From: Sumerlaeia bacterium
GTDB taxonomy: Bacteria; Sumerlaeota; Sumerlaeia; SLMS01; JAHLLQ01
DNA length: 64,000 nucleotides
Direction of reading: 5' to 3'
Assembly (NCBI GenBank): GCA_040219255.1
Contig: JAVJSW010000033.1
Coordinates: 12,675-76,674 of the forward strand
Both the position numbers and the translations under genes were made by a program. Positions 1 to 37,803 of the stretch are shown here, piece after piece. Positions within the stretch are counted from its first letter, which is position 1, and each line of letters opens with the position of its first letter. The notes beneath the pieces were generated by a model. That model did no database searches. It was not told the DNA's origin and saw nothing but the letters and a program-made list of their open reading frames with translations.

Positions 1-232
1 CAGCATCCTGATCGCCCTGACGGATAAGGGTCAGGTGGTGTATGGCGGCCGCGAAATCGGTATCAGCGGCGTGCAGCCGCTGGTCAAGCGGATGCTCCAG
101 ACCGAGGACGTGCCGGTGATCGTCCAGGCTGACGTCGCCGCCGAGAGCGGGATGCTGGTGCGCATCATCGACGAAGCGAAGCTCGGCGGCGCGCAAAAAG
201 TCAGCGTGGCCACGCGCCAGACGCGAGGCTAA
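1..232 (+). CDS. exbD: ExbD/TolR biopolymer transport protein (5'-truncated by window edge)
   Basis: VPVIVQAD...GMLVRIIDEAKLGGAQKVSVAT is a typical ExbD C-terminus; lies directly upstream of tonB. Confidence 0.85.
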   Translation, partial: SILIALTDKGQVVYGGREIGISGVQPLVKRMLQTEDVPVIVQADVAAESGMLVRIIDEAKLGGAQKVSVATRQTRG

Positions 233-235
233 GCG

Positions 236-25083: not shown

Positions 25084-26832
25084 TTGTCGTCCGGCACTCC
25101 CTTCCCGTGGAAATCCCTCTTCCTCCTCCTTCCGCTCTCCATCCTGATCAGCGGCTACAACCTCTACTTCTCCAACCAGGACATCCAGATCCCGCTGATC
25201 CTGTGGCTCAACGACCCGTCGCTCTTTCCGGGCGATCCGTTCGCCGCCACGCTCGGCGGGTACTCCTCGCTTCTGTGGCCCATCGTGGCCGTCATCAGCC
25301 GCGTCGTGCCCTGGCAGGTTGTCTTTTTCGCGGGCTTCGTCCTGACGCGAGGCTTGATGCTGCTGGCGGGCGGGCGCCTCGCCTCGGCCCTCTTCCCCCA
25401 AAGCCGCCTCGCCCCCGTGGCCGCCATGGCCGCTCTGGCGATGGGGCCCCAGCCCTTCCTCGGCGGCGGAACCATCATCGAAGTCTATTTCGAGCACACG
25501 GCCCTGTCCGTCGCGTTCGCGCTGCTGGCCTTCGGCGAGCTCCTCCGTGGCCGCACGATTCTCTGCGCCGCACTGGCGGGATTGACCTTCTTCCTCAACG
25601 CGCTCTACGGAGTCTTCGCCTGCACCTATCTCTTCGCGGCCTGGCTCCACATGGGGCGCTGGCGCCAGGACGGGCCTGGCCGCATCGCCCTGGGCCTGCT
25701 GGCCTTCGCCGCGCTGGCCGCCCCAGCCTTCCTGGCCTCGCTCCACGCGGTGGGAGAAACCAAGACCTCCGACCCCATTTTCTGGCACGAAGCCGTCCTG
25801 CAGCGCTTCCCGCATCACTTCTGGCCCGGCGCCTGGTCCGCCGCCAGCTACTTCTTCCACTTCGCATCGAGCCTCGCCGTGGCCTGCATCCTCTTCAGGC
25901 GCCGCCCCGCCGAACCCGGCAACGAACGCTTTGGCCTCGCGATGTTCGTGGTCAGCTTGCTTTGGTTCTTTTTCGCGCTCGATGCCGCGTACTTCCTCAC
26001 CGAACCGACGGGAGTGATTCTCCACCCGGCTCGCGGCATGGACCTCTGGATCGCGTTCGTGGCCATTTATCTCGCCGCGCTCTGCGGCCACATGTTCGAG
26101 CACCGTTCCGGCCAGGCCACCTGGTCCTGGCTGCCGCTGGCGGGCTTCGCGGCCCTGCTGGCCTTCTGGCCCCTGGGCGCAGCCGGCCTCCTCGTGGGGC
26201 TCGCCGTCGCCGCAGCCATCGCCTTCGCCGGCCGCTTCAAGTCCACCCGCTGGCTCTCCGCCCGTCCCCTGACGGCGGCCATCGCGATCATCGCCTTCGT
26301 GGTGCTGGTGGCCCGGGTGGAAGAACGCAACGAACATCAAGACTCCTGGTTCGCCTTTCCCAGGGGCGAACAGCTCGAACTCGCCCTCTGGGCCCGCGAC
26401 CACACCGAGCCCTCCGCCACCTTCCTCATCGATCCGAGCTGGAAGTCCTTTCGTCCCCTCTCGCGCCGCCCCGTCTTCACCACCTGGAAGGACGGCTCGG
26501 CGATCCTCTGGCACACCCGCTTTGTCGAGGAATGGAACCGCCGCCTCGAATTGCTCGGCGCCCCCCTCTTCCTCAACGACGAACCCGACGATTGGGAAGA
26601 ACGCCTCGAGGACGAATACCACGACCTCTCCGAATTCGAAGTCGCCCTGATCGCCGCGCAAGTCCCCATCGACTACTGGATTGTCACCGAGGCCCGTTGG
26701 GGCCGGACCGATTGGCCCGTGGCTTTTCAGACCGAGACCTATCGCGTGGTGCGCGTGCCCGAATCCCCGGCGCTGACCACCGCCGAGGACGGCGCCACAA
26801 CCGGCGTCTCCCCCGCCGGCAGCAGCGACTGA
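25084..26832 (+). CDS. Polytopic membrane protein, DUF6798-like / GT-C-like (start uncertain, TTG assumed)
   Basis: DPSLFPGDPF near the N-terminus, many TMs, RFPHH, C-terminal WARDHT...FLIDP...FR...RRPVFTTWKDG...EW..R. Confidence 0.7.
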   Translation: MSSGTPFPWKSLFLLLPLSILISGYNLYFSNQDIQIPLILWLNDPSLFPGDPFAATLGGYSSLLWPIVAVISRVVPWQVVFFAGFVLTRGLMLLAGGRLASALFPQSRLAPVAAMAALAMGPQPFLGGGTIIEVYFEHTALSVAFALLAFGELLRGRTILCAALAGLTFFLNALYGVFACTYLFAAWLHMGRWRQDGPGRIALGLLAFAALAAPAFLASLHAVGETKTSDPIFWHEAVLQRFPHHFWPGAWSAASYFFHFASSLAVACILFRRRPAEPGNERFGLAMFVVSLLWFFFALDAAYFLTEPTGVILHPARGMDLWIAFVAIYLAALCGHMFEHRSGQATWSWLPLAGFAALLAFWPLGAAGLLVGLAVAAAIAFAGRFKSTRWLSARPLTAAIAIIAFVVLVARVEERNEHQDSWFAFPRGEQLELALWARDHTEPSATFLIDPSWKSFRPLSRRPVFTTWKDGSAILWHTRFVEEWNRRLELLGAPLFLNDEPDDWEERLEDEYHDLSEFEVALIAAQVPIDYWIVTEARWGRTDWPVAFQTETYRVVRVPESPALTTAEDGATTGVSPAGSSD

Positions 26833-28190
26833 CCCACCACATAGCGCCCCACGGCCCGCCCCGACTCCAGCCCGGCCTTGCTCGCCGACGGATAGTGGAT
26901 GCCGCCGTAAATGCGGGATTTGCTCGCCTCCTCGGCGGCGGCGCGAAAGCTCGCGTACTGCCGCACGACGTAGCGGTCGCCGTGGTTGCGCTCTAGGTCG
27001 TCGCTCAAATCCTCGAACGCGAAGTCCTCGCCGAACCAGTGGGTGAGAACCGCCTCCGCCGCCCCGGAAAACGTGGAGTGGCCGCTGGGAAACTCGGGGA
27101 ATGGCGGCGTGGCGATGTAGGGCGTCCACCGCGAATCGGGCTCGCCCGTGGCCGCATTGCCGTCCTGATCCGCGAGCGCGATCGCCGTCACGGGCCGCCA
27201 ATAGTTGTAGTGGTACTTGGCCTCCCAGCAGGCGATGCCCGCGTCCGCCATGGCAAGGTTGAGCTGGGCGAAGAGCCGGGCCTGCTCCAGCGGCGTCAGC
27301 GGCTCGCCCGCCCCGGCCCGCAGCCGAACGGCCGTCTCGGCGATCTGATTCCAGTGCCCCGTGGGGGTGAAAGTGCCCTGGGCATCGGCCCAGAAGCAGG
27401 CGATTTTCTCCTGCTCGGCGGTGCGGGAATCGGAGAAATAGGCGCCGATGTCGCGCACCAGATTCAACTCCTCGGCGAACTGGGCGCTGGTGATGTCGGG
27501 CGGCGGCACGCAGCGAAACTGCTCCGGCGACTCCATCACGAACGGCTGGAGCGCCCGCCATTCCGGCAGCAGCGGCGGGCGGAAAGTCGGCCGCGTCGTG
27601 CGCCACTCCCCCGCCTTCGGCCGCGCCGGAGGACGCCACGGATCCGGCGTCTGCGAACCATCGTGGGCCCGGGCCTCGATCATGCGCGCCGCCGCCTCGC
27701 GCCCCGCCAGCAGGCTCGCCTCCCAGCACTTCGCCATCTCCGGCCCCGGTTGGTAAAGCGCCAGCGCTTCCTCATAACGAGAGGTCAGCTTCGGGAACAG
27801 GTGCTCCAGCACCTCGGCCATCGCCGCCGCCGCGGCCCATTCCGGCTCGGCTTCGGCGGGGCATTCGAAGGCGCCGAGGTAGGGCTGGTAGGGAAGGGCC
27901 GCCGATGTGGCTCCATCCCTCGAGGCCGCCAGCGCCGCGTCGTACCCGGCCCCGTGGACCATTGCCAACGCCCGCGCCGCCTGCGGAGGAAACACCCGCT
28001 GCTCGCGGAACGTCTGGCGGACGACACCGTTCCAGTGCAGCATCACGCTCGCCGACGTCAGCCCCTCGTCCGCGAGTGTATTGAAGCGGCGATGGAGGTC
28101 GGGGGGAGGGGATTCGGAGGCGTGGGCTGTAAGAGCCAAGCCGCAGAGAATCGACACGATGAAACTCGACAAGCGCAGCGGAAGGGCCAT
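26739..28190 (-). CDS. Secreted vanadium-dependent haloperoxidase / PAP2 superfamily protein
   Basis: KYHYNYWRP, PEFPSGHS, SRIYGGIHY motifs; signal peptide. Confidence 0.88.
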   Translation of the reverse strand: MALPLRLSSFIVSILCGLALTAHASESPPPDLHRRFNTLADEGLTSASVMLHWNGVVRQTFREQRVFPPQAARALAMVHGAGYDAALAASRDGATSAALPYQPYLGAFECPAEAEPEWAAAAAMAEVLEHLFPKLTSRYEEALALYQPGPEMAKCWEASLLAGREAAARMIEARAHDGSQTPDPWRPPARPKAGEWRTTRPTFRPPLLPEWRALQPFVMESPEQFRCVPPPDITSAQFAEELNLVRDIGAYFSDSRTAEQEKIACFWADAQGTFTPTGHWNQIAETAVRLRAGAGEPLTPLEQARLFAQLNLAMADAGIACWEAKYHYNYWRPVTAIALADQDGNAATGEPDSRWTPYIATPPFPEFPSGHSTFSGAAEAVLTHWFGEDFAFEDLSDDLERNHGDRYVVRQYASFRAAAEEASKSRIYGGIHYPSASKAGLESGRAVGRYVVGQSLLPAGETPVVAPSSAVVSAGDSGTRTTR

Positions 28191-28378
28191 GCGGAAACTC
28201 CGGGTGGAAGCGTCAACCGCCGCGGAACGATCGGCGAGAGAGACACCTCGAAATTCCAAGAAACACGGCGGATTGGAGCCCGACTTACCCCCCATCTGTA
28301 AAGGTCAAAACCAACCGTTGCTGTCCGCCATCCCCACCATCCGCCCCGCTATCCGTGTTCATCCGTGGCTCCAATCTC

Positions 28379-29722
28379 CTAATCCCCAACCCGCCGAACG
28401 CTCCACGTCGCCTTCGGCGCCATCACGCAATCGCCAAAGGGCAAATCCGTCCGCGTCTCCACGCTCAAGGCATCCTCGACCCGGTGCAGCACCACCGGCG
28501 GATTGCCGGTATCGAGGACGGCGGCGGTGAAGTGCACGTCGGCCTTGAGCAGCGGCCAATGGGGGACGTCGTAGGCGACCGGTTCGCCCGCGCGGCCGGG
28601 GGCGATGGGGGGGCTGGCTTCTTCGAAAAGCACCTGGCCATCGGGCCAGGACGCCGCGAACGCCAGGCGATAAGGCGCCTCGGCGCCTTCGTCGTCGATG
28701 TCGAAGAGCAGACGCAGCGGCTCGCCCGTCGTGATCGCGTCGATTTCCGAGCCCTCGGCATTCACCGCCCGCAGACCGAGCAGCCTCGGCACCCGCCGCC
28801 CGCGCCAGGCCCCCAGGCCGTGCGCCTCCAGAGCCTCGTCCGTGGCCTCCGCAACGGGGGCGTGGGCGTGGCTGAGGAAATGGCCGGGCAGGATCGACAG
28901 ATGAGCGAGGCTGCGCAGGTAGCGCTGGGAGACCTCGCGCGGGTCGCCCTGCTCGACCAGGCGCCCGTGATCGAGCCAGATCAGCCGGTCGCACAGATCG
29001 CGGGCCGTGGGCACCTCGTGCGTGACCAGGACGATGGTGACGCCGCGCTCGTGCAGTTCGAACACGCGCATCATGCCACGCTGCTGAAATTCCGCATCCC
29101 CCACCACCAGGATTTCGTCCACCAGGATGATTTCCGGGTCCAGGTGCATCGCCACGCTGCACGCCAGCCGGGCGTACATGCCGCTGCTGTAATGCTTCAC
29201 GGGCTCGAAGAGGAATTTGCGCAGGCCGCTGAATTCGATGATGGCTTCGAGGCGGGCGTGCGTTTCCTCGCGCGAGAGGCCCATGATGGCGCCGTTGTAG
29301 AAAATGTTCTCCATCCCAGAGAGTTCGGGGTGGAAACCCACGCCCAGCTCGAGCAGCGACGTCACGCGCCCCCGCACCGCGACGCGGCCGCTGGTGGGCT
29401 GGGTGATGCCGGCGGCCAGCTTGAGCACCGTGCTCTTGCCCGCGCCGTTGTGCCCCACGAAGCCCAGCATCTCGCCCTTCGCCACGCGGAAACTGACGTC
29501 GTGCAGGGCGTCGAAAGGCACGCGGCGCAGGTGCTCGAAGAGTTTGTTCACCACCCAGGCACCGAGGCGGGGCGTGGCGCGCTGCTGGATTTCGTAGGTC
29601 TTCGTGACGTTTTCAAAGACAATAGCGAGCTGACCCGGATCCGTGGCCACGCGCGCCCCGCGAGCGATGTCTTGCAGGGTGCGGTCTTCGGTGGCGGATG
29701 CGGCGGTCGAAAGGTCGGTCAT
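28379..29722 (-). CDS. Polysaccharide export ABC ATPase with C-terminal domain (Wzt/TagH-like)
   Basis: GHNGAGKST, LLELGVGFHPELSG.ENI, PVKHYSSGMYARL, VDEILVVGDAEFQ; Wzt_C-like tail. Confidence 0.9.
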   Translation of the reverse strand: MTDLSTAASATEDRTLQDIARGARVATDPGQLAIVFENVTKTYEIQQRATPRLGAWVVNKLFEHLRRVPFDALHDVSFRVAKGEMLGFVGHNGAGKSTVLKLAAGITQPTSGRVAVRGRVTSLLELGVGFHPELSGMENIFYNGAIMGLSREETHARLEAIIEFSGLRKFLFEPVKHYSSGMYARLACSVAMHLDPEIILVDEILVVGDAEFQQRGMMRVFELHERGVTIVLVTHEVPTARDLCDRLIWLDHGRLVEQGDPREVSQRYLRSLAHLSILPGHFLSHAHAPVAEATDEALEAHGLGAWRGRRVPRLLGLRAVNAEGSEIDAITTGEPLRLLFDIDDEGAEAPYRLAFAASWPDGQVLFEEASPPIAPGRAGEPVAYDVPHWPLLKADVHFTAAVLDTGNPPVVLHRVEDALSVETRTDLPFGDCVMAPKATWSVRRVGD

Positions 29723-30000
29723 GGCGTCTCCCGAAAGAGGGGTGGGACGCCGCGGGATGTGGGTCAACCGCTACGTCGTGTGGCGCCGTGCCGTTCCTCG
29801 ATCCAAATTCACGCGCGGAAAGGGCGGCGGGGCGACTTCGGCTCATCCTCCCTAAGAACCAGATGGAGAGACTGTTTGATGCCCCGTCAGCGCCGCGAAA
29901 TCCTCTGAATGGGCGGAGTCAAGAGGACTGGACGTGGCTTTCGCGTTGGGCCATGACCAGCCGACCGGATTCTGAGACTCGAAAATCGAGAAAAAAAGCG

Positions 30001-30054
30001 TTGACTCGCTCCATGTCGGGGGGCTATCCGATCCCATCCCCTACTTGGAAGGAA
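30001..30054 (+). promoter_or_regulatory. Possible promoter and SD for the 30062-33308 operon
   Basis: TTGACT at 30001; weak -10; GGAAGGA a few nt before the ATG at 30062. Confidence 0.35.
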
Positions 30055-30061
30055 GCATACC

Positions 30062-30358
30062 ATGAAGTCGCTTCAATCCCTTTTTGTAGCCGTCGCAATC
30101 CTGTTCGTCGCCAGTTTCGCACTCACCTCTTCCGCACCCACTGTCGCATCCGTCGCCGAGATGGAAGCCGTTGCCGGTGCCCTTTGTCCAGGCGATGCCT
30201 GTTCTGGCACTACCAACATCCGTTGCGCAGCAATTGATAGGACCTGTGCAGGAAATGCCGCGCGCTGCATCAACAACAATGGCAATGGAGAATGTACCAG
30301 CAACGGAGTCGGCGGTTGTTTTAACGGCTGTTCAGACCTGAATCAGACATGCGCATAG
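30062..30358 (+). CDS. Small secreted Cys-rich protein; putative peptide precursor with double-glycine-like leader
   Basis: Sec signal, then SVAEMEAVAG/A, then a core with 9 Cys rich in Gly/Asn; good SD. Confidence 0.8.
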   Translation: MKSLQSLFVAVAILFVASFALTSSAPTVASVAEMEAVAGALCPGDACSGTTNIRCAAIDRTCAGNAARCINNNGNGECTSNGVGGCFNGCSDLNQTCA

Positions 30359-30372
30359 CAAGACCTCGCACA

Positions 30373-31743
30373 ATGGGATCCAGCTGGAGTCTACGGATCT
30401 CCGTTCGAGTAGAGCTGCTTACTTCCTTCCTTATTCTGTTGGCCACTATTGTCGTTGCCGATGGTAGGGGAGTTGTAGGCGGCTCTCCTATGTTGGATCG
30501 CATAGAAAGAATTTACGCCTCGAGACCGAGCTTCTACTCCAAGGTACGCTTGGTCAAGCGAACCTGGCAATCTAACTCCCTCGAATCCGATTACCGTGAT
30601 GTAGATCCTGTCGTTCATAACTACGAAATGTTCGCGGACCATCCGAATTACGAATTGAAATACGAACCCGACCCGTCCTCAGGAGCCAACTTTACCACCA
30701 CAGCCAGGTCATTGGTTTTAGTGGGCGATGAATGGGTCAATTACGCGGAAGGTGTGTGGAAAGGAGAGAGTCATCGCGGCGTCCAATACGACAGGGGTGA
30801 AGACGCCCGTTGGCATTTTCTTGAAATCATGCGGCTTTTCCCCCCACTTCTCGCCGACAATGTGGGGGGGGCGGATGTTCCTTTTCTCCAGGTGCTGCGC
30901 GAATACCTGAAAGAGGGGGCCCAAGTCGAAACGACGGAGATTCGCGAGGACGGGCAATCTCTGCTGAAGTTGCAGGCGGATACTGAATACGGTGACTACG
31001 CCATTTATCTGGACCCGTCCCGTGGTTACCTGGTCAGGAAGGCGGTTGTGGAGCGGGGTCCCAGCGACTTATTCGTGAGAGGCTTGACTGTAACCCAAGA
31101 TTATTCGGATTTTCCAGACGATATTGGTTTACCCAAACCAGAGGTCGATGTCTACGCCCGCTACGAACTCACGGACGTCGAATTCGGTGAGGCCAACGGC
31201 GTCGCCTACATTAAGGAAGGAACCGCGACCTCCCTTTTTCAAAGTAAGAGCGGAAAAGTCAGTCATGTGAGATATGAGATGCAAGTCGAGGAGTTTTCGC
31301 CTCTAACCGAAGATATCATAACCGAATCCCGAGCTTTCGACCTAACCCGATTCCCAGAGCCGGATACTGTCGTGCATTTGGGGGCTTCCCACATCAGCTA
31401 TCGATTCGTGAATGGTATCATGGTGCCGCTTGTCCCGCCCGACCTGTATCGGGATATTCCCGCGCTTTCCGAAGCAGAAGCCCTCTCCGGGGAGGCATTG
31501 GTTCAGTCCCCCAGGGAAAACGCTCAAGGCAAGTCAGGAGTTAGCTCCGACGAAGCGGCGGCAGGGTCGTCGGGGGGACCGATGCCCTCAAATACCCCGG
31601 CCGCGTCACCGAATGGTCCGGCAGCCGAGTCGACCCGTTTCCTCATGCCCATCATGATGATCGTTGGCTTCGTCGCAGCGTTCTTTGTGCTTGCTGGTTC
31701 CATTCTGGCAATCGTCATTGCGAAAAAAAGCAGGAAAATCTAG
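30373..31743 (+). CDS. Hypothetical exported protein with C-terminal TM anchor (start 30349 or 30373)
   Basis: Hydrophobic N-terminal segment, beta-rich body (IYLDPSRGYLVRK), low-complexity linker, TM plus KKSRKI. Confidence 0.75.
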   Translation: MGSSWSLRISVRVELLTSFLILLATIVVADGRGVVGGSPMLDRIERIYASRPSFYSKVRLVKRTWQSNSLESDYRDVDPVVHNYEMFADHPNYELKYEPDPSSGANFTTTARSLVLVGDEWVNYAEGVWKGESHRGVQYDRGEDARWHFLEIMRLFPPLLADNVGGADVPFLQVLREYLKEGAQVETTEIREDGQSLLKLQADTEYGDYAIYLDPSRGYLVRKAVVERGPSDLFVRGLTVTQDYSDFPDDIGLPKPEVDVYARYELTDVEFGEANGVAYIKEGTATSLFQSKSGKVSHVRYEMQVEEFSPLTEDIITESRAFDLTRFPEPDTVVHLGASHISYRFVNGIMVPLVPPDLYRDIPALSEAEALSGEALVQSPRENAQGKSGVSSDEAAAGSSGGPMPSNTPAASPNGPAAESTRFLMPIMMIVGFVAAFFVLAGSILAIVIAKKSRKI

Positions 31744-32877
31744 TTGCTCCGTACCGTCTTCAATTGTGTTGTCAAGATTCTATTCGCGGCATTTCTTGCC
31801 GTCGGTTTCCCGATGTCAACTCAAGCGGCCGATTCAAGTGTGGTGGGTCCATATTGTGGGGTTATGTCACTTCACTATTGGGGGAACACTCACGATGTCG
31901 AATTCGACATTGTGAGCCTGATCTCTCCAGAGTACATCGGCTCACGGCGAGGAAGTACCTTGCTGGAATTGCAGGCCGCCGCCGAATCGCTTGGTCTCTA
32001 CAGCGAAGGGTTGAAAGGGTTGAAGCCTGATCATCTGGGAAAATGGGACAACGATGTTGGGATTATACTCCATATAGCTGCGGATCCCGAGACGTCCACA
32101 ACCTACAATCACTATGTGCTTTTCCTGGACGATGAAGGCGCCGATGTCTTGCTGTTCGACCCTTTCGAAGGAGTCGTCAGGTACTCGAAGGGCCAACTCT
32201 TGGCTCAGATGAGCGGTTTTGGTCTCATTGTCTCTAAGGAGCGAGGCTTACTTTCTTTCTCTCAGGGATTTGCCAGTCCCGCCGTCATTTTCGCAGTAAT
32301 GATTTTCTCTCTGTTCTTTGTCTCTAGGCGTTTCGCCCATGCCCGAATCGAAGACATGGGACACAATTTTGATCGGTGGATGGGTTTTGCTTTAGGCGGG
32401 GCCGTCTTTATAGTGTCGGTCGGAGCGATGGGAATGGCATCGTTGCTTTGGCACTCCATCTCTCCCGCTGGTTTTTTTCGTAACAGCGACGTGATCGCAA
32501 CCATACGTGAGAGAAACTTCTCTCACTTTTTGCCTGAATACTCGGCAAGCGAGGTGGCGGAGTTGCTACGGCAAGACAACAGGTTCGTTGTGATCGTCGA
32601 TGCCCGCTTCTCATTCGACTATGAGGCCGGTTCGCTCCCGGGAGCGATCAGTATTCCCGTGGATGCTTCGAACGCTCAGATCGAATCGGCGCTACGGGAC
32701 GTTGACAGGTCCGCCGAGGTGGTCGTTTTCTGCCAAAGTTCCGGCTGTCCCTTCGCCGAACGAATAGCCAAGAGATTGAAGAATGACTTCGGCATGAATA
32801 ATCTCGCACTGTTTTCCGGAGGATGGTTAGAATGGCTTTCCCACTCAAAGCAACACGTGGAACCGAACACCCTATAA
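31744..32877 (+). CDS. C39-like cysteine peptidase - 2 TM - rhodanese fusion
   Basis: GPYCGVMSL (catalytic Cys), GSTLLELQAAAESLGL, NHYVLF (His), LFDP (Asp); C-terminal IVDAR..DYEAGSLPGAISIP...VVFCQSSGC...LFSGGWLEW. Confidence 0.85.
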   Translation: MLRTVFNCVVKILFAAFLAVGFPMSTQAADSSVVGPYCGVMSLHYWGNTHDVEFDIVSLISPEYIGSRRGSTLLELQAAAESLGLYSEGLKGLKPDHLGKWDNDVGIILHIAADPETSTTYNHYVLFLDDEGADVLLFDPFEGVVRYSKGQLLAQMSGFGLIVSKERGLLSFSQGFASPAVIFAVMIFSLFFVSRRFAHARIEDMGHNFDRWMGFALGGAVFIVSVGAMGMASLLWHSISPAGFFRNSDVIATIRERNFSHFLPEYSASEVAELLRQDNRFVVIVDARFSFDYEAGSLPGAISIPVDASNAQIESALRDVDRSAEVVVFCQSSGCPFAERIAKRLKNDFGMNNLALFSGGWLEWLSHSKQHVEPNTL

Positions 32878-33308
32878 TCTCGCTGCTTCGCTTGGTCTTA
32901 TGTGTCACGTGGTTTCTCGCGGGATTTGTCAAGCTGCAGAACCCGTACTTGTTCCTGGATGACGTGATTCAATACAGGTTGGTGGGATTCGGGGTGGCAT
33001 TACTCATCGCGACCATTCTTCCAGTCATGGAAATTTCTTTGGCCGCCGCGATCGGAACCCGGTTCTGCCTGCCTTTTGCTGCAGGACTCAGCAGCCTCCT
33101 GCTCACGGTTTTTCTGGTAGCCCAATCGAGTGCCGTCATCAGGCAGCTCGACATATCTTGCGGATGCTTTTCCAGTTCAATAGGTGGCCAAGGTGGAGGA
33201 GTCGTCGACTACTTCACGCTCCTCAGGACGGGCGCCTTGCTGGCGATCAGCCTCTTCTTGACGATTCGGACCTTCAAGTCATATACCCGGTTACGCGACG
33301 TCATCTAG
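32823..33308 (+). CDS. MauE/DoxX family membrane protein (start 32823 or 32832)
   Basis: FLAGFVKLQNP..F...Y.L, LPVMEI, LDISCGCF. Confidence 0.85.
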   Translation: MVRMAFPLKATRGTEHPIISLLRLVLCVTWFLAGFVKLQNPYLFLDDVIQYRLVGFGVALLIATILPVMEISLAAAIGTRFCLPFAAGLSSLLLTVFLVAQSSAVIRQLDISCGCFSSSIGGQGGGVVDYFTLLRTGALLAISLFLTIRTFKSYTRLRDVI

Positions 33309-33323
33309 GCCTGATGTGCCCCT

Positions 33324-33521
33324 TCACCCTGCCATTTCCCCACCGGTTTTTTCTGCGGAGGCTGGGCGGGAAAGGCGGGGGCGATGGCGGACGGCGCCGC
33401 CGGAGCGGAGACGCAGTCGGTCGAGGGCGGAACGGGCGAGGGTGAGGGCGAGGTCGAGCTGCTCGTACGGGTCCATGTCCCATGAGAGGGAGTCTTCGAA
33501 GTCGTGGTGCTGGGCGATCAT
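33324..33521 (-). CDS. Small hypothetical protein
   Basis: GGAGG SD upstream of ATG (MIAQHHDF...); host-like GC. Confidence 0.4.
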   Translation of the reverse strand: MIAQHHDFEDSLSWDMDPYEQLDLALTLARSALDRLRLRSGGAVRHRPRLSRPASAEKTGGEMAG

Positions 33522-33704
33522 GGGCGGGGTGCCTCCGTGGGCGTTGAATGTGGAGGCAGTGTAGGGGAGAGGGCGGGGCGTGGCGCGTGACAAAGTGCGG
33601 TTAAACTTGTGGGTTTTAACGGTGTGGGGCAGCGCGGAGGGGCGCGGGTTTTCTGTTCTTAACGCAAAGTGGCAGAGCAGCGAAGGTGCAAAGGGGGGCG
33701 TTTG

Positions 33705-33890
33705 GTGGCGGCAAGGAGCACGAGGTGCCCTGTCACCATCTGCTGGCCGAGTACCTGGACGCCTACATCGAGGCGGCCGGGCTCGGGGGCCGGGCGAAGG
33801 TGGCGCTATTTCAGGGTGCGCCGGGGCGGGGTCTTGAGCGGGGTGCGGCTGACGCGCGGCAGCGCCTGGTCCATGGTGCGGCGCCGGTGC
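33705..33890 (+). pseudogene. Tyrosine recombinase/integrase fragment
   Basis: GGKEHEVPCHHLLAEYLDAYIEAAGL...ALF, then a frameshift to LTRGSAWSMVRRR; both ends of the gene are missing. Confidence 0.75.
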
Positions 33891-33986
33891 GCTGTTTTTC
33901 CAATTCCAGTCCAGAAAGCCGTTGCCATCCGCAGGGGCTTGGCATTATGCGTTTCCCCAAAGCGACCAGACCGTAATTAGACCCCG

Positions 33987-35393: not shown

Positions 35394-36890
35394 ATGACCG
35401 CCCGCTTCCTGTCCGCTATTCTTCCGTGCCTGTTGGCGGGCCTGCTTTTTTTCGCGACGATGCCGCTTCTGGCGGGCGATCCGCCGCCGGACCCAACGCC
35501 GACATCCGCTCCTGGCCCCGATCCGGAGCCGACGCCGGAACCTTGCCACGACAAGTTTGGCAACGAGGTGCCGTGTCCCGAAGAAGACCCGGAACCAGCG
35601 CCCGAGCCCGAACCCGAACCTGAGCCGACGCCGGAGGAACCGACGCCGACGCCTCCCACGCCGACACCCACGCATGAGCCGTGTCATGATAGTGAGGGAA
35701 ATGAGATTCCCTGCCAGTATCCAGAAGAACCCACACCTGTCCCAAGTCCCACACCGGATCTTCCACCAACGCCGGAGCCGACTTCTCCTGATTCTGGTCA
35801 TTGCTACAATAGCGCGGGGGAGGTTGTGTCGTGTGACGCGACGCCAACGCCGGTTCCTCCACCGACAGAGCCGCCACCGCCGGACCCGAGTCCGACGCCA
35901 GATGATGATCCGCCGCCGGGAGGGGATGGTCCTCCGCCTCCAACGGATTCGCAGACGATAGATTGTGCGGGTTCAGATGTTACGTTCACGATAGAGATTC
36001 AGAAAGAACCCGATGATCCTATATGTGCAGGAAGTATTGTATGGGGGCAAGATGGCTTTGCGGCTATCAGGTCCGATCCATTGGAAGCATACCTACTTGT
36101 AACTAATATAGTCACCGAGCCTTTAAGCAACGAGCGACTATGCGACGTTGGCGAGCAAGTTATTTCTTGGAAGGGTGAAATGGAGTGTGGTACTGATGAG
36201 AATGGGAATGCAATTTTCGTAGATATATATCTTAGTTTAGAAGTGGTTTTTGAAGACTGCTGTGACCAGGCACAATGCCAGGAATTCGACACAGAATTGT
36301 GCTCATGTGTAGAAGATTGCACAGATTGTCAAAGACCTGAGCCAGTTACCTGCCATGTTGAGGATGAGGATGGCTGTGGCTATGTATTTGATCCATGTGC
36401 TCTTTGGGGTGGACCGTTTAATCCAGGACAAGTGGGAGGAATTGTTTGCTGTGGTGGCACAATGCATGTATGTGTAGAGGAAGGGGCTCATGGCGATTGC
36501 AAGAGCAACCCTGATTCTCCTGCGTGTAGAGAGATTTACGATTGCACGCGCGCACATGAGCAAGCAGAGGTCAATTGTGGGTTAGGAGAGTGCCCAGATC
36601 ATGACGGCAAAGATACTGGTATAGCAGGTCCTTCAGGCGACACCGATGAAGACAGAGAGCAGAATGAAGCCTGCTCTGATTGCGCAGGCTTGACAGCACA
36701 AATTGACTGTCTAAACAATAAATTGAACGATCTGAGCAATATATGTCCTAATCAGGTAGAGGATCCGGCTGGATTTCAGGAATGTCTAAACGCTTTGCTA
36801 AAAGAACTGGGCAATGCCGAGAATTACCGCTCTAGGAAGTGCAAGCGATGCTGCGATGCAATGAACTGTGACAAGCCTTGTCCCAACTAA
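35394..36890 (+). CDS. Secreted Pro-rich / Cys-rich protein
   Basis: Signal peptide; PT/PE linkers with three C-x-[DN]-x-x-G-x-x-[VI]-x-C repeats; about 30 Cys in the low-GC C-terminal region. Confidence 0.75.
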   Translation: MTARFLSAILPCLLAGLLFFATMPLLAGDPPPDPTPTSAPGPDPEPTPEPCHDKFGNEVPCPEEDPEPAPEPEPEPEPTPEEPTPTPPTPTPTHEPCHDSEGNEIPCQYPEEPTPVPSPTPDLPPTPEPTSPDSGHCYNSAGEVVSCDATPTPVPPPTEPPPPDPSPTPDDDPPPGGDGPPPPTDSQTIDCAGSDVTFTIEIQKEPDDPICAGSIVWGQDGFAAIRSDPLEAYLLVTNIVTEPLSNERLCDVGEQVISWKGEMECGTDENGNAIFVDIYLSLEVVFEDCCDQAQCQEFDTELCSCVEDCTDCQRPEPVTCHVEDEDGCGYVFDPCALWGGPFNPGQVGGIVCCGGTMHVCVEEGAHGDCKSNPDSPACREIYDCTRAHEQAEVNCGLGECPDHDGKDTGIAGPSGDTDEDREQNEACSDCAGLTAQIDCLNNKLNDLSNICPNQVEDPAGFQECLNALLKELGNAENYRSRKCKRCCDAMNCDKPCPN

Positions 36891-36915
36891 CAACTCAAAG
36901 AAGGCTGGAGAATAA

Positions 36916-37614
36916 GTGATTATGCGTAAAATTTTTGAGCTTGCATTAGCCGTGACCGGAGCCCTGGCGCTTTGTGGAAGTTTGTCTGCGAATACTTGTC
37001 CTTTTGACATATATTTGCCTGTGCTTCCTGCTAGCCATAGCACTATAGTAGTCCCTACATCTGAACCTGAATTTGCGATATATCAAAATACCAATCCGAC
37101 CCATGTGGTTTTTGCTCTATGGGGAAACGGGGTTGCTATCGTGTCAAGCCGCGCTCTTGGAAGCGCCGCTTTAGATGGCGCCTTGGTCATGACTGAAGCC
37201 GTTGATTTATCTACTACGTATGGGTTGGTTCAATTTGACACTGATAAGTATAGCGAATTTTTCGCAAGCCTTGATGCCGCAGAAATTTTCCAGGCGGAAC
37301 TATCTGATAGTATCTATAAAATGCCAAGTTTTCCAACAACCTTTATCAAATTTTGTGGAGATGGTAAATACTTTGGAATGACATCATATCACCAATATGC
37401 AGAATTTCGGGGCTTTGAGTTGCGGACGACGGGCATCTTTCCGGCTGGCATGGCAGATGTGGTTCCTGCTTTGACAGAGGAGGAAATTACATTCAGGGCA
37501 AAGTGGAGCTTAGTTGTCGATTTTGTAGATTCTATTTTCTTGCAGGAAATTGACACGGCTTTTGTCGGCGACATGGGGCCTGTCCATTGGGATATGAATG
37601 TTACTAATCAATAA
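36916..37614 (+). CDS. Hypothetical exported protein, low GC
   Basis: GGAG SD, signal peptide MRKIFELALAVTGALALCGSLSA, 232-aa open frame in AT-rich DNA. Confidence 0.7.
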   Translation: MIMRKIFELALAVTGALALCGSLSANTCPFDIYLPVLPASHSTIVVPTSEPEFAIYQNTNPTHVVFALWGNGVAIVSSRALGSAALDGALVMTEAVDLSTTYGLVQFDTDKYSEFFASLDAAEIFQAELSDSIYKMPSFPTTFIKFCGDGKYFGMTSYHQYAEFRGFELRTTGIFPAGMADVVPALTEEEITFRAKWSLVVDFVDSIFLQEIDTAFVGDMGPVHWDMNVTNQ

Positions 37615-37803
37615 GGGAGTGCCTGCGGCTTGTGGATTCCGCCTCCTGATTGAACTACACGCTCTAAAGTTGTCCGTATGCCAAGGCTTTGAGTTCGGCC
37701 GCGAATTTCCAATAGATTGGAAATGATATGAAATTTATAAATAATTGTGTACCCCTTGTCCATTCTTTTGCTTCAAACGATGGTTGGTTGGGCCAGAAGA
37801 CAA

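Follow-up and report, generated by a model that had tools for sequence, protein, structure and literature searches.

A candidate prepropeptide family combining a Sec-type signal with a double-glycine-type motif beside a C39 peptidase-rhodanese fusion

In the double-glycine leader systems processed by ATP-binding cassette (ABC) peptidases (PCAT1, ComA, LahT; class II bacteriocins and some lanthipeptides), the leader ends in G-[G/A/S] just before the core peptide, the cut is made in the cytoplasm by an ABC-fused peptidase of family PF03412, and the substrate carries no general secretory (Sec) signal. In the classical consensus of such leaders positions -4 and -7 are hydrophobic and a position near -8 is acidic. 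Here we analyse a locus that recalls these systems without sharing one of their defining features, namely a 98-residue precursor gene and the three genes that follow it in a stretch of 64,000 nucleotides (the window, with positions counted from its first letter) of the Sumerlaeia bacterium assembly GCA_040219255.1, contig JAVJSW010000033.1. As in the ABC-processed systems, the precursor has a G-[G/A/S] pair just before its core (G39-A40) and the partner enzyme belongs to the same peptidase family, and residues V37, M34 and E33 of the precursor stand at positions -4, -7 and -8 as in classical leaders. Unlike in those leaders, however, a predicted Sec-type signal lies ahead of the double-glycine segment and the upstream leader positions are not conserved in the family, and unlike in systems of the PCAT1, ComA and LahT type the peptidase is fused to two transmembrane helices and a rhodanese domain behind a signal peptide of its own, with no ABC transporter. 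One defining feature of the classical double-glycine leader class, a cytoplasmic cut by an ABC-fused peptidase in a substrate devoid of a Sec signal, is absent here, and the system may be likened to a double-glycine leader system at the cleavage step and to a DsbA/DsbB pair at the oxidation step.

Conotoxins and similar animal toxins are made with a signal, a pro-region and a hypervariable mature peptide on a fixed Cys framework, and the present precursor follows the same three-part logic, with hypervariable loops between conserved Cys residues. It differs in being bacterial and in that its pro-region would be removed at a double-glycine-type site by a C39 peptidase and not by a furin-type protease, and there is neither sequence kinship nor a demonstrated kinship of fold between the two.

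The single parts of the locus likewise have precedents. In the Fap amyloid system of Pseudomonas, the C39 peptidase FapD has a Sec signal and is active in the periplasm, its catalytic Cys being essential, and the accessible text of its description states that the Fap proteins are without canonical C39 sequences and that the target of FapD is unclear (PMC5557850). FapD is moreover presented there as a stand-alone protein of an amyloid-secretion operon, whereas in our case the peptidase, which is fused to a redox domain, has the gene of a candidate double-glycine-type substrate in its immediate neighbourhood. With regard to oxidation, the available portion of a recent preprint has MauE replacing DsbB by way of a CXC site and taking part, with MauD, in maturing the Cys-rich small subunit of methylamine dehydrogenase; it expects a thioredoxin-fold partner (DsbA or MauD), and rhodaneses do not occur once in that portion (bioRxiv 10.64898/2026.03.05.709764). 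The MauE encoded here resembles the one portrayed there in that it has four transmembrane segments, with CXC and then Phe between helices 3 and 4, and lies beside the gene of a Cys-rich, putatively exported substrate, but its conserved neighbour is a CX4C rhodanese and the mau genes are not present. PspE, a rhodanese of the periplasm, can restore disulfide formation where DsbA is lacking (Chng et al. 2012, cited in PMC5403849) and provides, for the domain found here, the example of an exported rhodanese as a thiol oxidant. PspE as characterised in the accessible part of that account has, however, a single Cys and needed overexpression and DsbC (PMC5403849), while the rhodanese in question is tethered to the membrane, has two conserved Cys as a pair and comes with a MauE of its own.

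Every domain comes from a known family, and the novelty lies in their combination, in the precursor family and in the rhodanese partner implied for MauE; furthermore, the front position of the precursor before three maturation-type genes is an arrangement not described for such peptides. The literature and curated families that were searched hold no description of such a system, most subscription journals lying outside the coverage.

A Cys-rich precursor family

The precursor ORF (open reading frame) is a real gene and more than a chance frame, although it would hardly have been recognised from its own sequence. Single-sequence searches with the 98-aa precursor returned itself alone, both among 5.8 billion proteins (one of eight candidates) and in the host's own genome, and Pfam and NCBIfam gave zero matches; a protein atlas likewise offered no usable feature match, every structure match having a template modelling score (TM-score) below 0.5. 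The family came to light solely by way of the neighbouring genes. In an alignment of 14 precursors found by synteny (A3) the Cys residues are invariant or nearly so and the glycine pair is aligned, and the profile made from it has 168 matches at E<=1e-3, nine of them at E<=1e-10, among 1.84 billion representative proteins. The matches are protein clusters at 50% identity, which puts the size of the family at no fewer than 168 clusters. The 150 listed matches are 88-180 aa long and mostly align over nearly the whole profile; the conservation counts of the family below are taken from a 150-row alignment (A5) of sequences selected by profile. When the window's own sequence was left out and the profile built from the other 149 members, the precursor frame still scored E 3.5e-10 (35.8 bits) as against E 0.58 for the next best of 807 six-frame segments, both values being obtained with the HMMER filters off, as the default filters lose the match to the composition-bias filter. 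The precursor belongs to an undescribed but widespread peptide family; 20 members compared with Pfam and NCBIfam, with E up to 1 allowed, gave no match at the curated cut-off (e.g. ShK at E 0.58), and the sole member looked up that has a source name is annotated as 'hypothetical protein'.

With respect to anatomy (coordinates in Table 1) the original prediction was exact, since its translation, its tandem order of signal, segment and core and its count of nine Cys all agree with the DNA of the frame. A putative Sec signal is suggested by K2, by a hydrophobic core spanning residues 6-22 (mean Kyte-Doolittle value 2.46) and by small residues before either of two putative signal-peptidase sites chosen by eye, between A25 and P26 (S-S-A25) or between A29 and S30 (T-V-A29); the proline at +1 speaks against a cut after A25. 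N-terminal hydrophobic segments are seen across the family. The nine Cys, at residues 42, 47, 55, 62, 69, 78, 86, 90 and 97, are all located C-terminal of A38-G39-A40. The notion that C42 might be the lipidated residue of a lipoprotein was considered and rejected. A lipobox has the consensus [LVI][ASTVI][GAS]C and directly follows the hydrophobic region, but G-A-L-C42 does not fit it and lies 20 residues beyond the hydrophobic core, so that the lipobox is neither matched nor correctly placed; some relatives have V-A-G-C, which is likewise far from the hydrophobic region.

The tandem layout, with a hydrophobic signal, a short segment ended by a double-glycine-type motif and a Cys-rich core, proves to be family-wide. 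G is present in 141 of the 150 rows in the column of G39, and the column of A40 has G, A or S in 145 (G 112, A 21, S 12), although these counts are drawn from rows picked by a profile that already held the glycine and Cys columns. The synteny-found precursors, which were chosen by size and Cys content only, are a more independent set in this respect, and here all 22 full-length sequences carry the G-[G/A/S] motif. In most members it sits 0-6 residues ahead of the first core Cys. Positions -3 and -4 before the core are mostly V, I or L in the family, and positions -7 and -8, where the precursor itself has M34 and E33, are G, S, A or T; farther upstream in the leader the single conspicuous feature is a Pro some 11 residues ahead of the motif (62/150). 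Of the EMxxVxG motif that had been singled out in the leader, the Gly pair is consequently conserved among the homologues of the 150-row alignment, whereas the 'EM' part is not.

Eight Cys are near-invariant, yet the mean column identity over the same rows is just 11%, and the family core is a fixed Cys scaffold with hypervariable loops, which bears out the conserved leader and hypervariable core that had been foreseen. In the present precursor the scaffold consists of residues 42, 55, 62, 69, 78, 86, 90 and 97, and the extra Cys is C47 (codon 30200-30202). The odd Cys count that had drawn attention in the single sequence is both real and recurrent, since core Cys number 9 in 67 rows, 8 in 63, 10-12 in 15 and 6-7 in 5. 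Between the first and the second Cys the distance is 0-4 residues in the nine-Cys members, with one exception among the 67, but 6-15 residues in every one of the 63 eight-Cys members, and it follows from this difference in spacing that the extra Cys is an insertion beside the first Cys, represented here by C47. The ninth Cys is the hallmark of a subfamily, and it may possibly be a free thiol or take part in a dimer or a metal site.

The four-gene cassette and its recurrence

Four genes run head to tail on the + strand, overlapping or gapless, and encode the precursor and proteins of 464, 377 and 161 aa; the start of the 464-aa gene overlaps the precursor stop by 10 nt. The cassette looks acquired, because its guanine-plus-cytosine (GC) content is low compared with the flanks. 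No ABC transporter is found among the four genes, and the Pfam and NCBIfam searches of the cassette detected no modifying enzyme family of the kind known from peptides that are made on ribosomes and modified after translation (RiPPs) beyond proteolysis and disulfides; the rhodanese is a possible exception, although the evidence speaks for its having a redox role. No RNA datasets are listed for the cassette, and one DNA metagenome study contains 0.27 of the sampled words.

Relatives of the 377-aa protein were encountered at 39 loci of the genome collection, and the cassette recurs mainly in metagenome-assembled genomes (MAGs) of Planctomycetota, to which 31 of these loci belong. One locus from Hydrogenedentales and one from Sumerlaeota also match the peptidase part, and in six further loci (Omnitrophota, Rhodothermales, Opitutae and relatives) the rhodanese part alone is matched. 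Near-full-length C39-rhodanese genes are present at 27 loci, and 21 of these adjoin one or two small precursor-type ORFs of about 100-140 aa, in which the N-terminus is hydrophobic and a short linker with G-[G/A/S] at its end leads to a Cys-rich core; one of them is cut by a contig end. Six of the 27 are without a precursor, but in three of these (L019, L023 and L032) the DNA is missing where the gene would be expected and a fourth (L034) has a masked run there. MauE was detected by tblastn in 32 of the 39 loci, and a LolA-like gene is conserved between the precursor and peptidase genes. A full-length peptidase gene is present in just one of 40 relatives of the host genome.

In the single host-class relative that has the cassette (L003, 112-2508, + strand) the LolA-like and C39-rhodanese genes are fused into a single 798-aa frame, the catalytic His of the peptidase is replaced by Arg, and about 770 nt of upstream DNA contain no precursor. 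Two loci from Schlesneria (L032, 4096-4467, and L033, 12693-13055, both on the - strand) have, a few kb from the cassette and on the opposite strand, ORFs of 120-123 aa whose N-terminus is signal-like and whose 22-23 Cys form CxC/CxxC runs, which gives them a metallothionein-like look.

The 377-aa fusion ties the tandem layout of the precursor physically to a C39 double-glycine peptidase, and one with a predicted periplasmic placement. It is the sole PF03412 match in the 92%-complete host genome, and the profile of its family matches the solved double-glycine proteases LahT (6mpz, 1.3e-7), ComA (5xe8/3k8u, about 6e-7) and PCAT1 (4ry2, 2.4e-6). Of the catalytic residues, Cys (Cys38 in the 377-aa protein) and His are each retained in 24 of 25 family sequences and Asp in 22, while the rhodanese residues C330 and C335 are both kept in all 25. 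An N-terminal hydrophobic segment and two transmembrane helices are found in 22 of the 25, and in each of these 22 K+R outnumber D+E in the short loop that joins the helices. By the positive-inside rule this positively charged loop implies that both the C39 and the rhodanese domains face the periplasm, and the peptidase is hence predicted to act there.

The 161-aa protein has C113-G-C115-F116 between its third and fourth hydrophobic segments, which is the motif named for MauE in the accessible part of the preprint (bioRxiv 10.64898/2026.03.05.709764). That a rhodanese should be its partner is in agreement with the stand-alone exported rhodaneses of other phyla (L048 and L050-L054, from Omnitrophota, Rhodothermales and Opitutae MAGs), all six of which have a C-x4-C loop of the form C-[QS]-S-[SD]-S-C and three of which (L052-L054) are directly followed by MauE. 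Furthermore, the host genome itself has a second rhodanese-MauE pair (L055, contig C4, 1393-2623, - strand), in which a 233-aa exported rhodanese with the loop C-E-G-G-D-C lies directly upstream of a 272-aa MauE/DoxX protein and no peptidase or peptide gene is present, and this pair suggests that a CX4C rhodanese and MauE form a general module. DsbB (PF02600) was not found in the 92%-complete host assembly, which has one VKOR match, inside a 717-aa open frame.

The 464-aa protein gave zero matches in Pfam and NCBIfam and has hydrophobic segments at residues 21-37 and 441-457. It was modelled by AlphaFold2 (AF2) with a mean predicted local distance difference test (pLDDT) score of 71, and the top Foldseek match of the model is LolA3 (9tp6, E 3.1e-7, target-normalised TM-score 0.50), followed by further LolA/LolB proteins, RseB/MucB and LprG as structural neighbours. 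A profile of 15 genes that occupy the same position at other loci matches the protein with E 2.2e-16.

Maturation outside the cytoplasm and competing readings

We propose, and consider reasonably likely, that the precursor is a prepropeptide of a disulfide-rich family that is matured outside the cytoplasm by the products of the three downstream genes. Its N-terminal hydrophobic signal would take it through Sec, and the C39 domain, which the signal peptide and the two transmembrane helices of its protein would keep on the periplasmic side, would cut after G39-A40 to give a 58-aa core beginning at L41. MauE would by means of its CXC site act as a DsbB-like, quinone-linked oxidase and return the peptidase-fused CX4C rhodanese domain to its oxidised state, and this domain would in turn introduce four disulfides into the eight scaffold Cys, while the membrane-anchored LolA-like protein may hold, escort or neutralise the peptide. 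C47 would mark a subfamily and be left as a free or otherwise engaged thiol. Such a periplasmic maturation line is the simplest reading, since an export or membrane signal is present in each of the four products and an ABC transporter is not among them; it presupposes that the ORF is expressed and the peptide oxidised, both of which we infer. The hypervariable loops on a fixed scaffold, together with tandem precursor copies at two loci (L035 and L038), suggest a peptide of competition or defence, although such an activity is a guess.

Several observations weigh against this proposal and should be mentioned together. The conservation counts are partly circular because the profile that selected the 150 rows contained the columns in question, and the upstream acidic and hydrophobic positions of the leader are not conserved, just the last few matching the classical consensus. 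Two of the loci without a precursor, L031 and L040, have readable upstream DNA in which no precursor ORF was found. In ABC-linked C39 domains the Gln of the oxyanion hole is found some six residues before the catalytic Cys, but Gln is not conserved in residues 28-37 ahead of the catalytic Cys in this family, where Asn at position 30 is the commonest (9/25). AF2 applied to precursor residues 26-98 with 150 sequences modelled a single hairpin with a mean pLDDT of 51, a model of the core too poor for a disulfide map or for a comparison with known Cys-rich folds such as knottin, defensin and ShK. A complex prediction for the C39 domain and the precursor scored 0.45 against 0.17 for the best control; of 157 solved complexes 116 came up to this level, and of 215 mismatched pairs 2 did so. 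Three runs agree in at least 46% of contacts with a partner pLDDT of at least 41, but scores up to 0.60 are more often wrong than right unless the pairing is likely beforehand, and the support that this prediction lends to the proposal is weak. Finally, it is unusual for a cysteine protease and a rhodanese thiol to work in an oxidising compartment, and the cassette encodes no route across the outer membrane.

As for the alternatives, the least distant one changes only how the precursor is released, in that the hydrophobic segment would be a signal anchor that is left uncut by signal peptidase I and tethers the precursor, with the C39 cut at G39-A40 as the single release step. Pro at +1 blocks signal peptidase I, and P26 comes directly after T-S-S-A25, the best small-residue site; in addition the peptidase is itself membrane-tethered, and the pro-segment would be just 11-15 aa long if signal peptidase were to cut first. 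We nonetheless hold this variant to be unlikely, if by no means far-fetched, as the alternative site T-V-A29/S30 fits the -3/-1 rule and the family consensus, in which T-P comes after small residues, is suited to signal peptidase I. A more radical alternative is that G-[G/A/S] is not a cleavage site at all, the peptide being only exported and oxidised while the C39 domain acts on another substrate, such as the LolA-like protein or itself, or is a non-catalytic binding domain. The unconserved oxyanion Gln, the unclassical leader consensus and the weak binding prediction discussed above would fit such a situation, as would the fact that the target of FapD, the periplasmic C39 precedent, is stated to be unclear in the accessible text (PMC5557850). 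It is made improbable, however, by the retention of the catalytic Cys, His and Asp, by the synteny of precursor and peptidase in 21 of 27 loci and by the near-invariant Gly with G, A or S behind it, which in most members lies 0-6 residues ahead of the first core Cys and for which another explanation is difficult to find.

The original prediction had furthermore raised the possibility that the unpaired Cys is persulfidated by the rhodanese, and in a wider form this would make the domain a sulfurtransferase that modifies the peptide, the ninth Cys bearing a persulfide or trisulfide, or a thioether being formed, and the peptide a RiPP with sulfur chemistry. The Pfam rhodanese assignment (E 8.1e-14) and the odd Cys count in 67 of 150 members agree with this notion, but persulfidation of the ninth Cys is made unlikely by the fact that one and the same type of rhodanese, with both Cys in 25 of 25 sequences, accompanies 6-, 8- and 9-Cys precursors. 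Likewise, its active-site loop is C-x4-C and not of the single-Cys kind, exported copies that stand alone are paired with the DsbB-like disulfide generator MauE even where any peptide gene is absent, and the cassette holds no sulfur-donor gene, so that persulfidation is not favoured and we regard the sulfurtransferase reading as a whole as very improbable. That positions 30062-30358 are a chance open frame and no gene would agree with the lack of homologues in single-sequence searches, but this is already contradicted by the family evidence, in which the frame stands far apart from the next one when the window is left out (E 3.5e-10 versus 0.58), and also by the Shine-Dalgarno-like site upstream, the overlap with the next gene and the conserved place within the cassette, and is hardly conceivable.

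Returning to the proposed periplasmic maturation, a bolder version of it may be put forward, though tentatively and as something short of probable. The locus may exemplify a self-contained, ABC-independent periplasmic pathway for disulfide-rich peptides, in which Sec export and cleavage by an outward-facing C39 peptidase are followed by the action of the fused, DsbA-substituting CX4C rhodanese, recharged by MauE, with the LolA-like protein as an escort or immunity factor. This pathway would feed a large, hypervariable, conotoxin-like family in Planctomycetota and would have moved horizontally into other phyla, and in those members that have nine Cys, about half of the family, the additional thiol next to the new N-terminus could be a built-in reactive group (dimer, persulfide or metal site). 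Should the proposal be true, the textbook either/or between Sec signals and double-glycine leaders would be broken, and the poorly understood periplasmic C39 peptidases would gain a defined class of substrates. The recently proposed MauE disulfide pathway would likewise gain a non-thioredoxin partner in the CX4C rhodanese, and a sizeable unannotated family of bacterial peptides, of at least 168 clusters that neither Pfam nor NCBIfam covers, would be seen to share a fixed eight-Cys scaffold. Peptides of the family could then be mined as stable bioactive molecules, and the four-gene cassette is small enough for direct testing in a heterologous host.

Feature coordinates and surrounding genes

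Table 1. Features of the cassette and of its surroundings, in positions of the window unless residues are given
Feature	Position	Strand	Remarks
Precursor ORF	30062-30358	+	98 aa; ATG is the first possible start codon in frame
Shine-Dalgarno-like run GGAAGGAAG	30047-30055	+	6 nt upstream of the ATG, read from the DNA
Precursor residues 1-25, putative Sec-type signal peptide or signal anchor	30062-30136	+	K2, hydrophobic core, T-S-S-A
Precursor residues 26-40, putative pro-segment PTVASVAEMEAVAGA	30137-30181	+	ends in double-glycine-type motif G39-A40 (30176-30181)
Precursor residues 41-98 and stop, 58-aa core L41-A98 with 9 Cys	30182-30358	+	alignment with relatives
464-aa protein, LolA/LolB/RseB-like beta half-barrel, C-terminal transmembrane anchor with basic tail	30349-31743	+	AF2 and Foldseek
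377-aa fusion: signal peptide, Peptidase_C39, two transmembrane helices, rhodanese	31744-32877	+	Pfam and hydrophobicity
Peptidase_C39 domain, residues 38-166	31855-32241	+	Pfam E 3.8e-8, 33.7 bits against a cut-off of 22
Two transmembrane helices of the 377-aa protein	residues 177-193, 219-235	+	hydrophobic segments
Rhodanese domain, residues 268-366, C330-QSSG-C335	32545-32841	+	Pfam E 8.1e-14
161-aa MauE, four hydrophobic segments	32823-33308	+	Pfam MauE E 6.1e-19
Low-GC island with the four genes	30000-33400	.	51-56% GC against 61-71% in flanking windows
Short overlapping frames	33316-33980		between the cassette and the next gene
Small frames considered as integrase remnant	33669-33977		rejected
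498-aa ORF	35394-36890	+	signal-like N-terminus
Second low-GC stretch	36000-37800		43-48% GC
518-aa exported protein, PAP2 domain	26739-28295	-
Wzt/TagH-like ABC ATPase	28379-29767	-

Between the cassette and the next gene there are several short overlapping frames, and the GC content is back to 64%. An integrase remnant was considered for the small frames within this region and dropped, as they have no Pfam match at E<=0.1. Further downstream an ORF of 498 aa has, behind its signal-like N-terminus, a long stretch rich in Pro, Thr and Glu and a very Cys-rich C-terminal half, and gave zero Pfam or NCBIfam matches; the drop in GC content in this part of the window resembles a second compositional island. 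On the other side of the cassette the PAP2-domain protein, which shows weak matches to vanadium chloroperoxidase domains, is encoded upstream of the gene for the Wzt/TagH-like ATPase, and both genes have the GC content of the host and are unrelated to the cassette.

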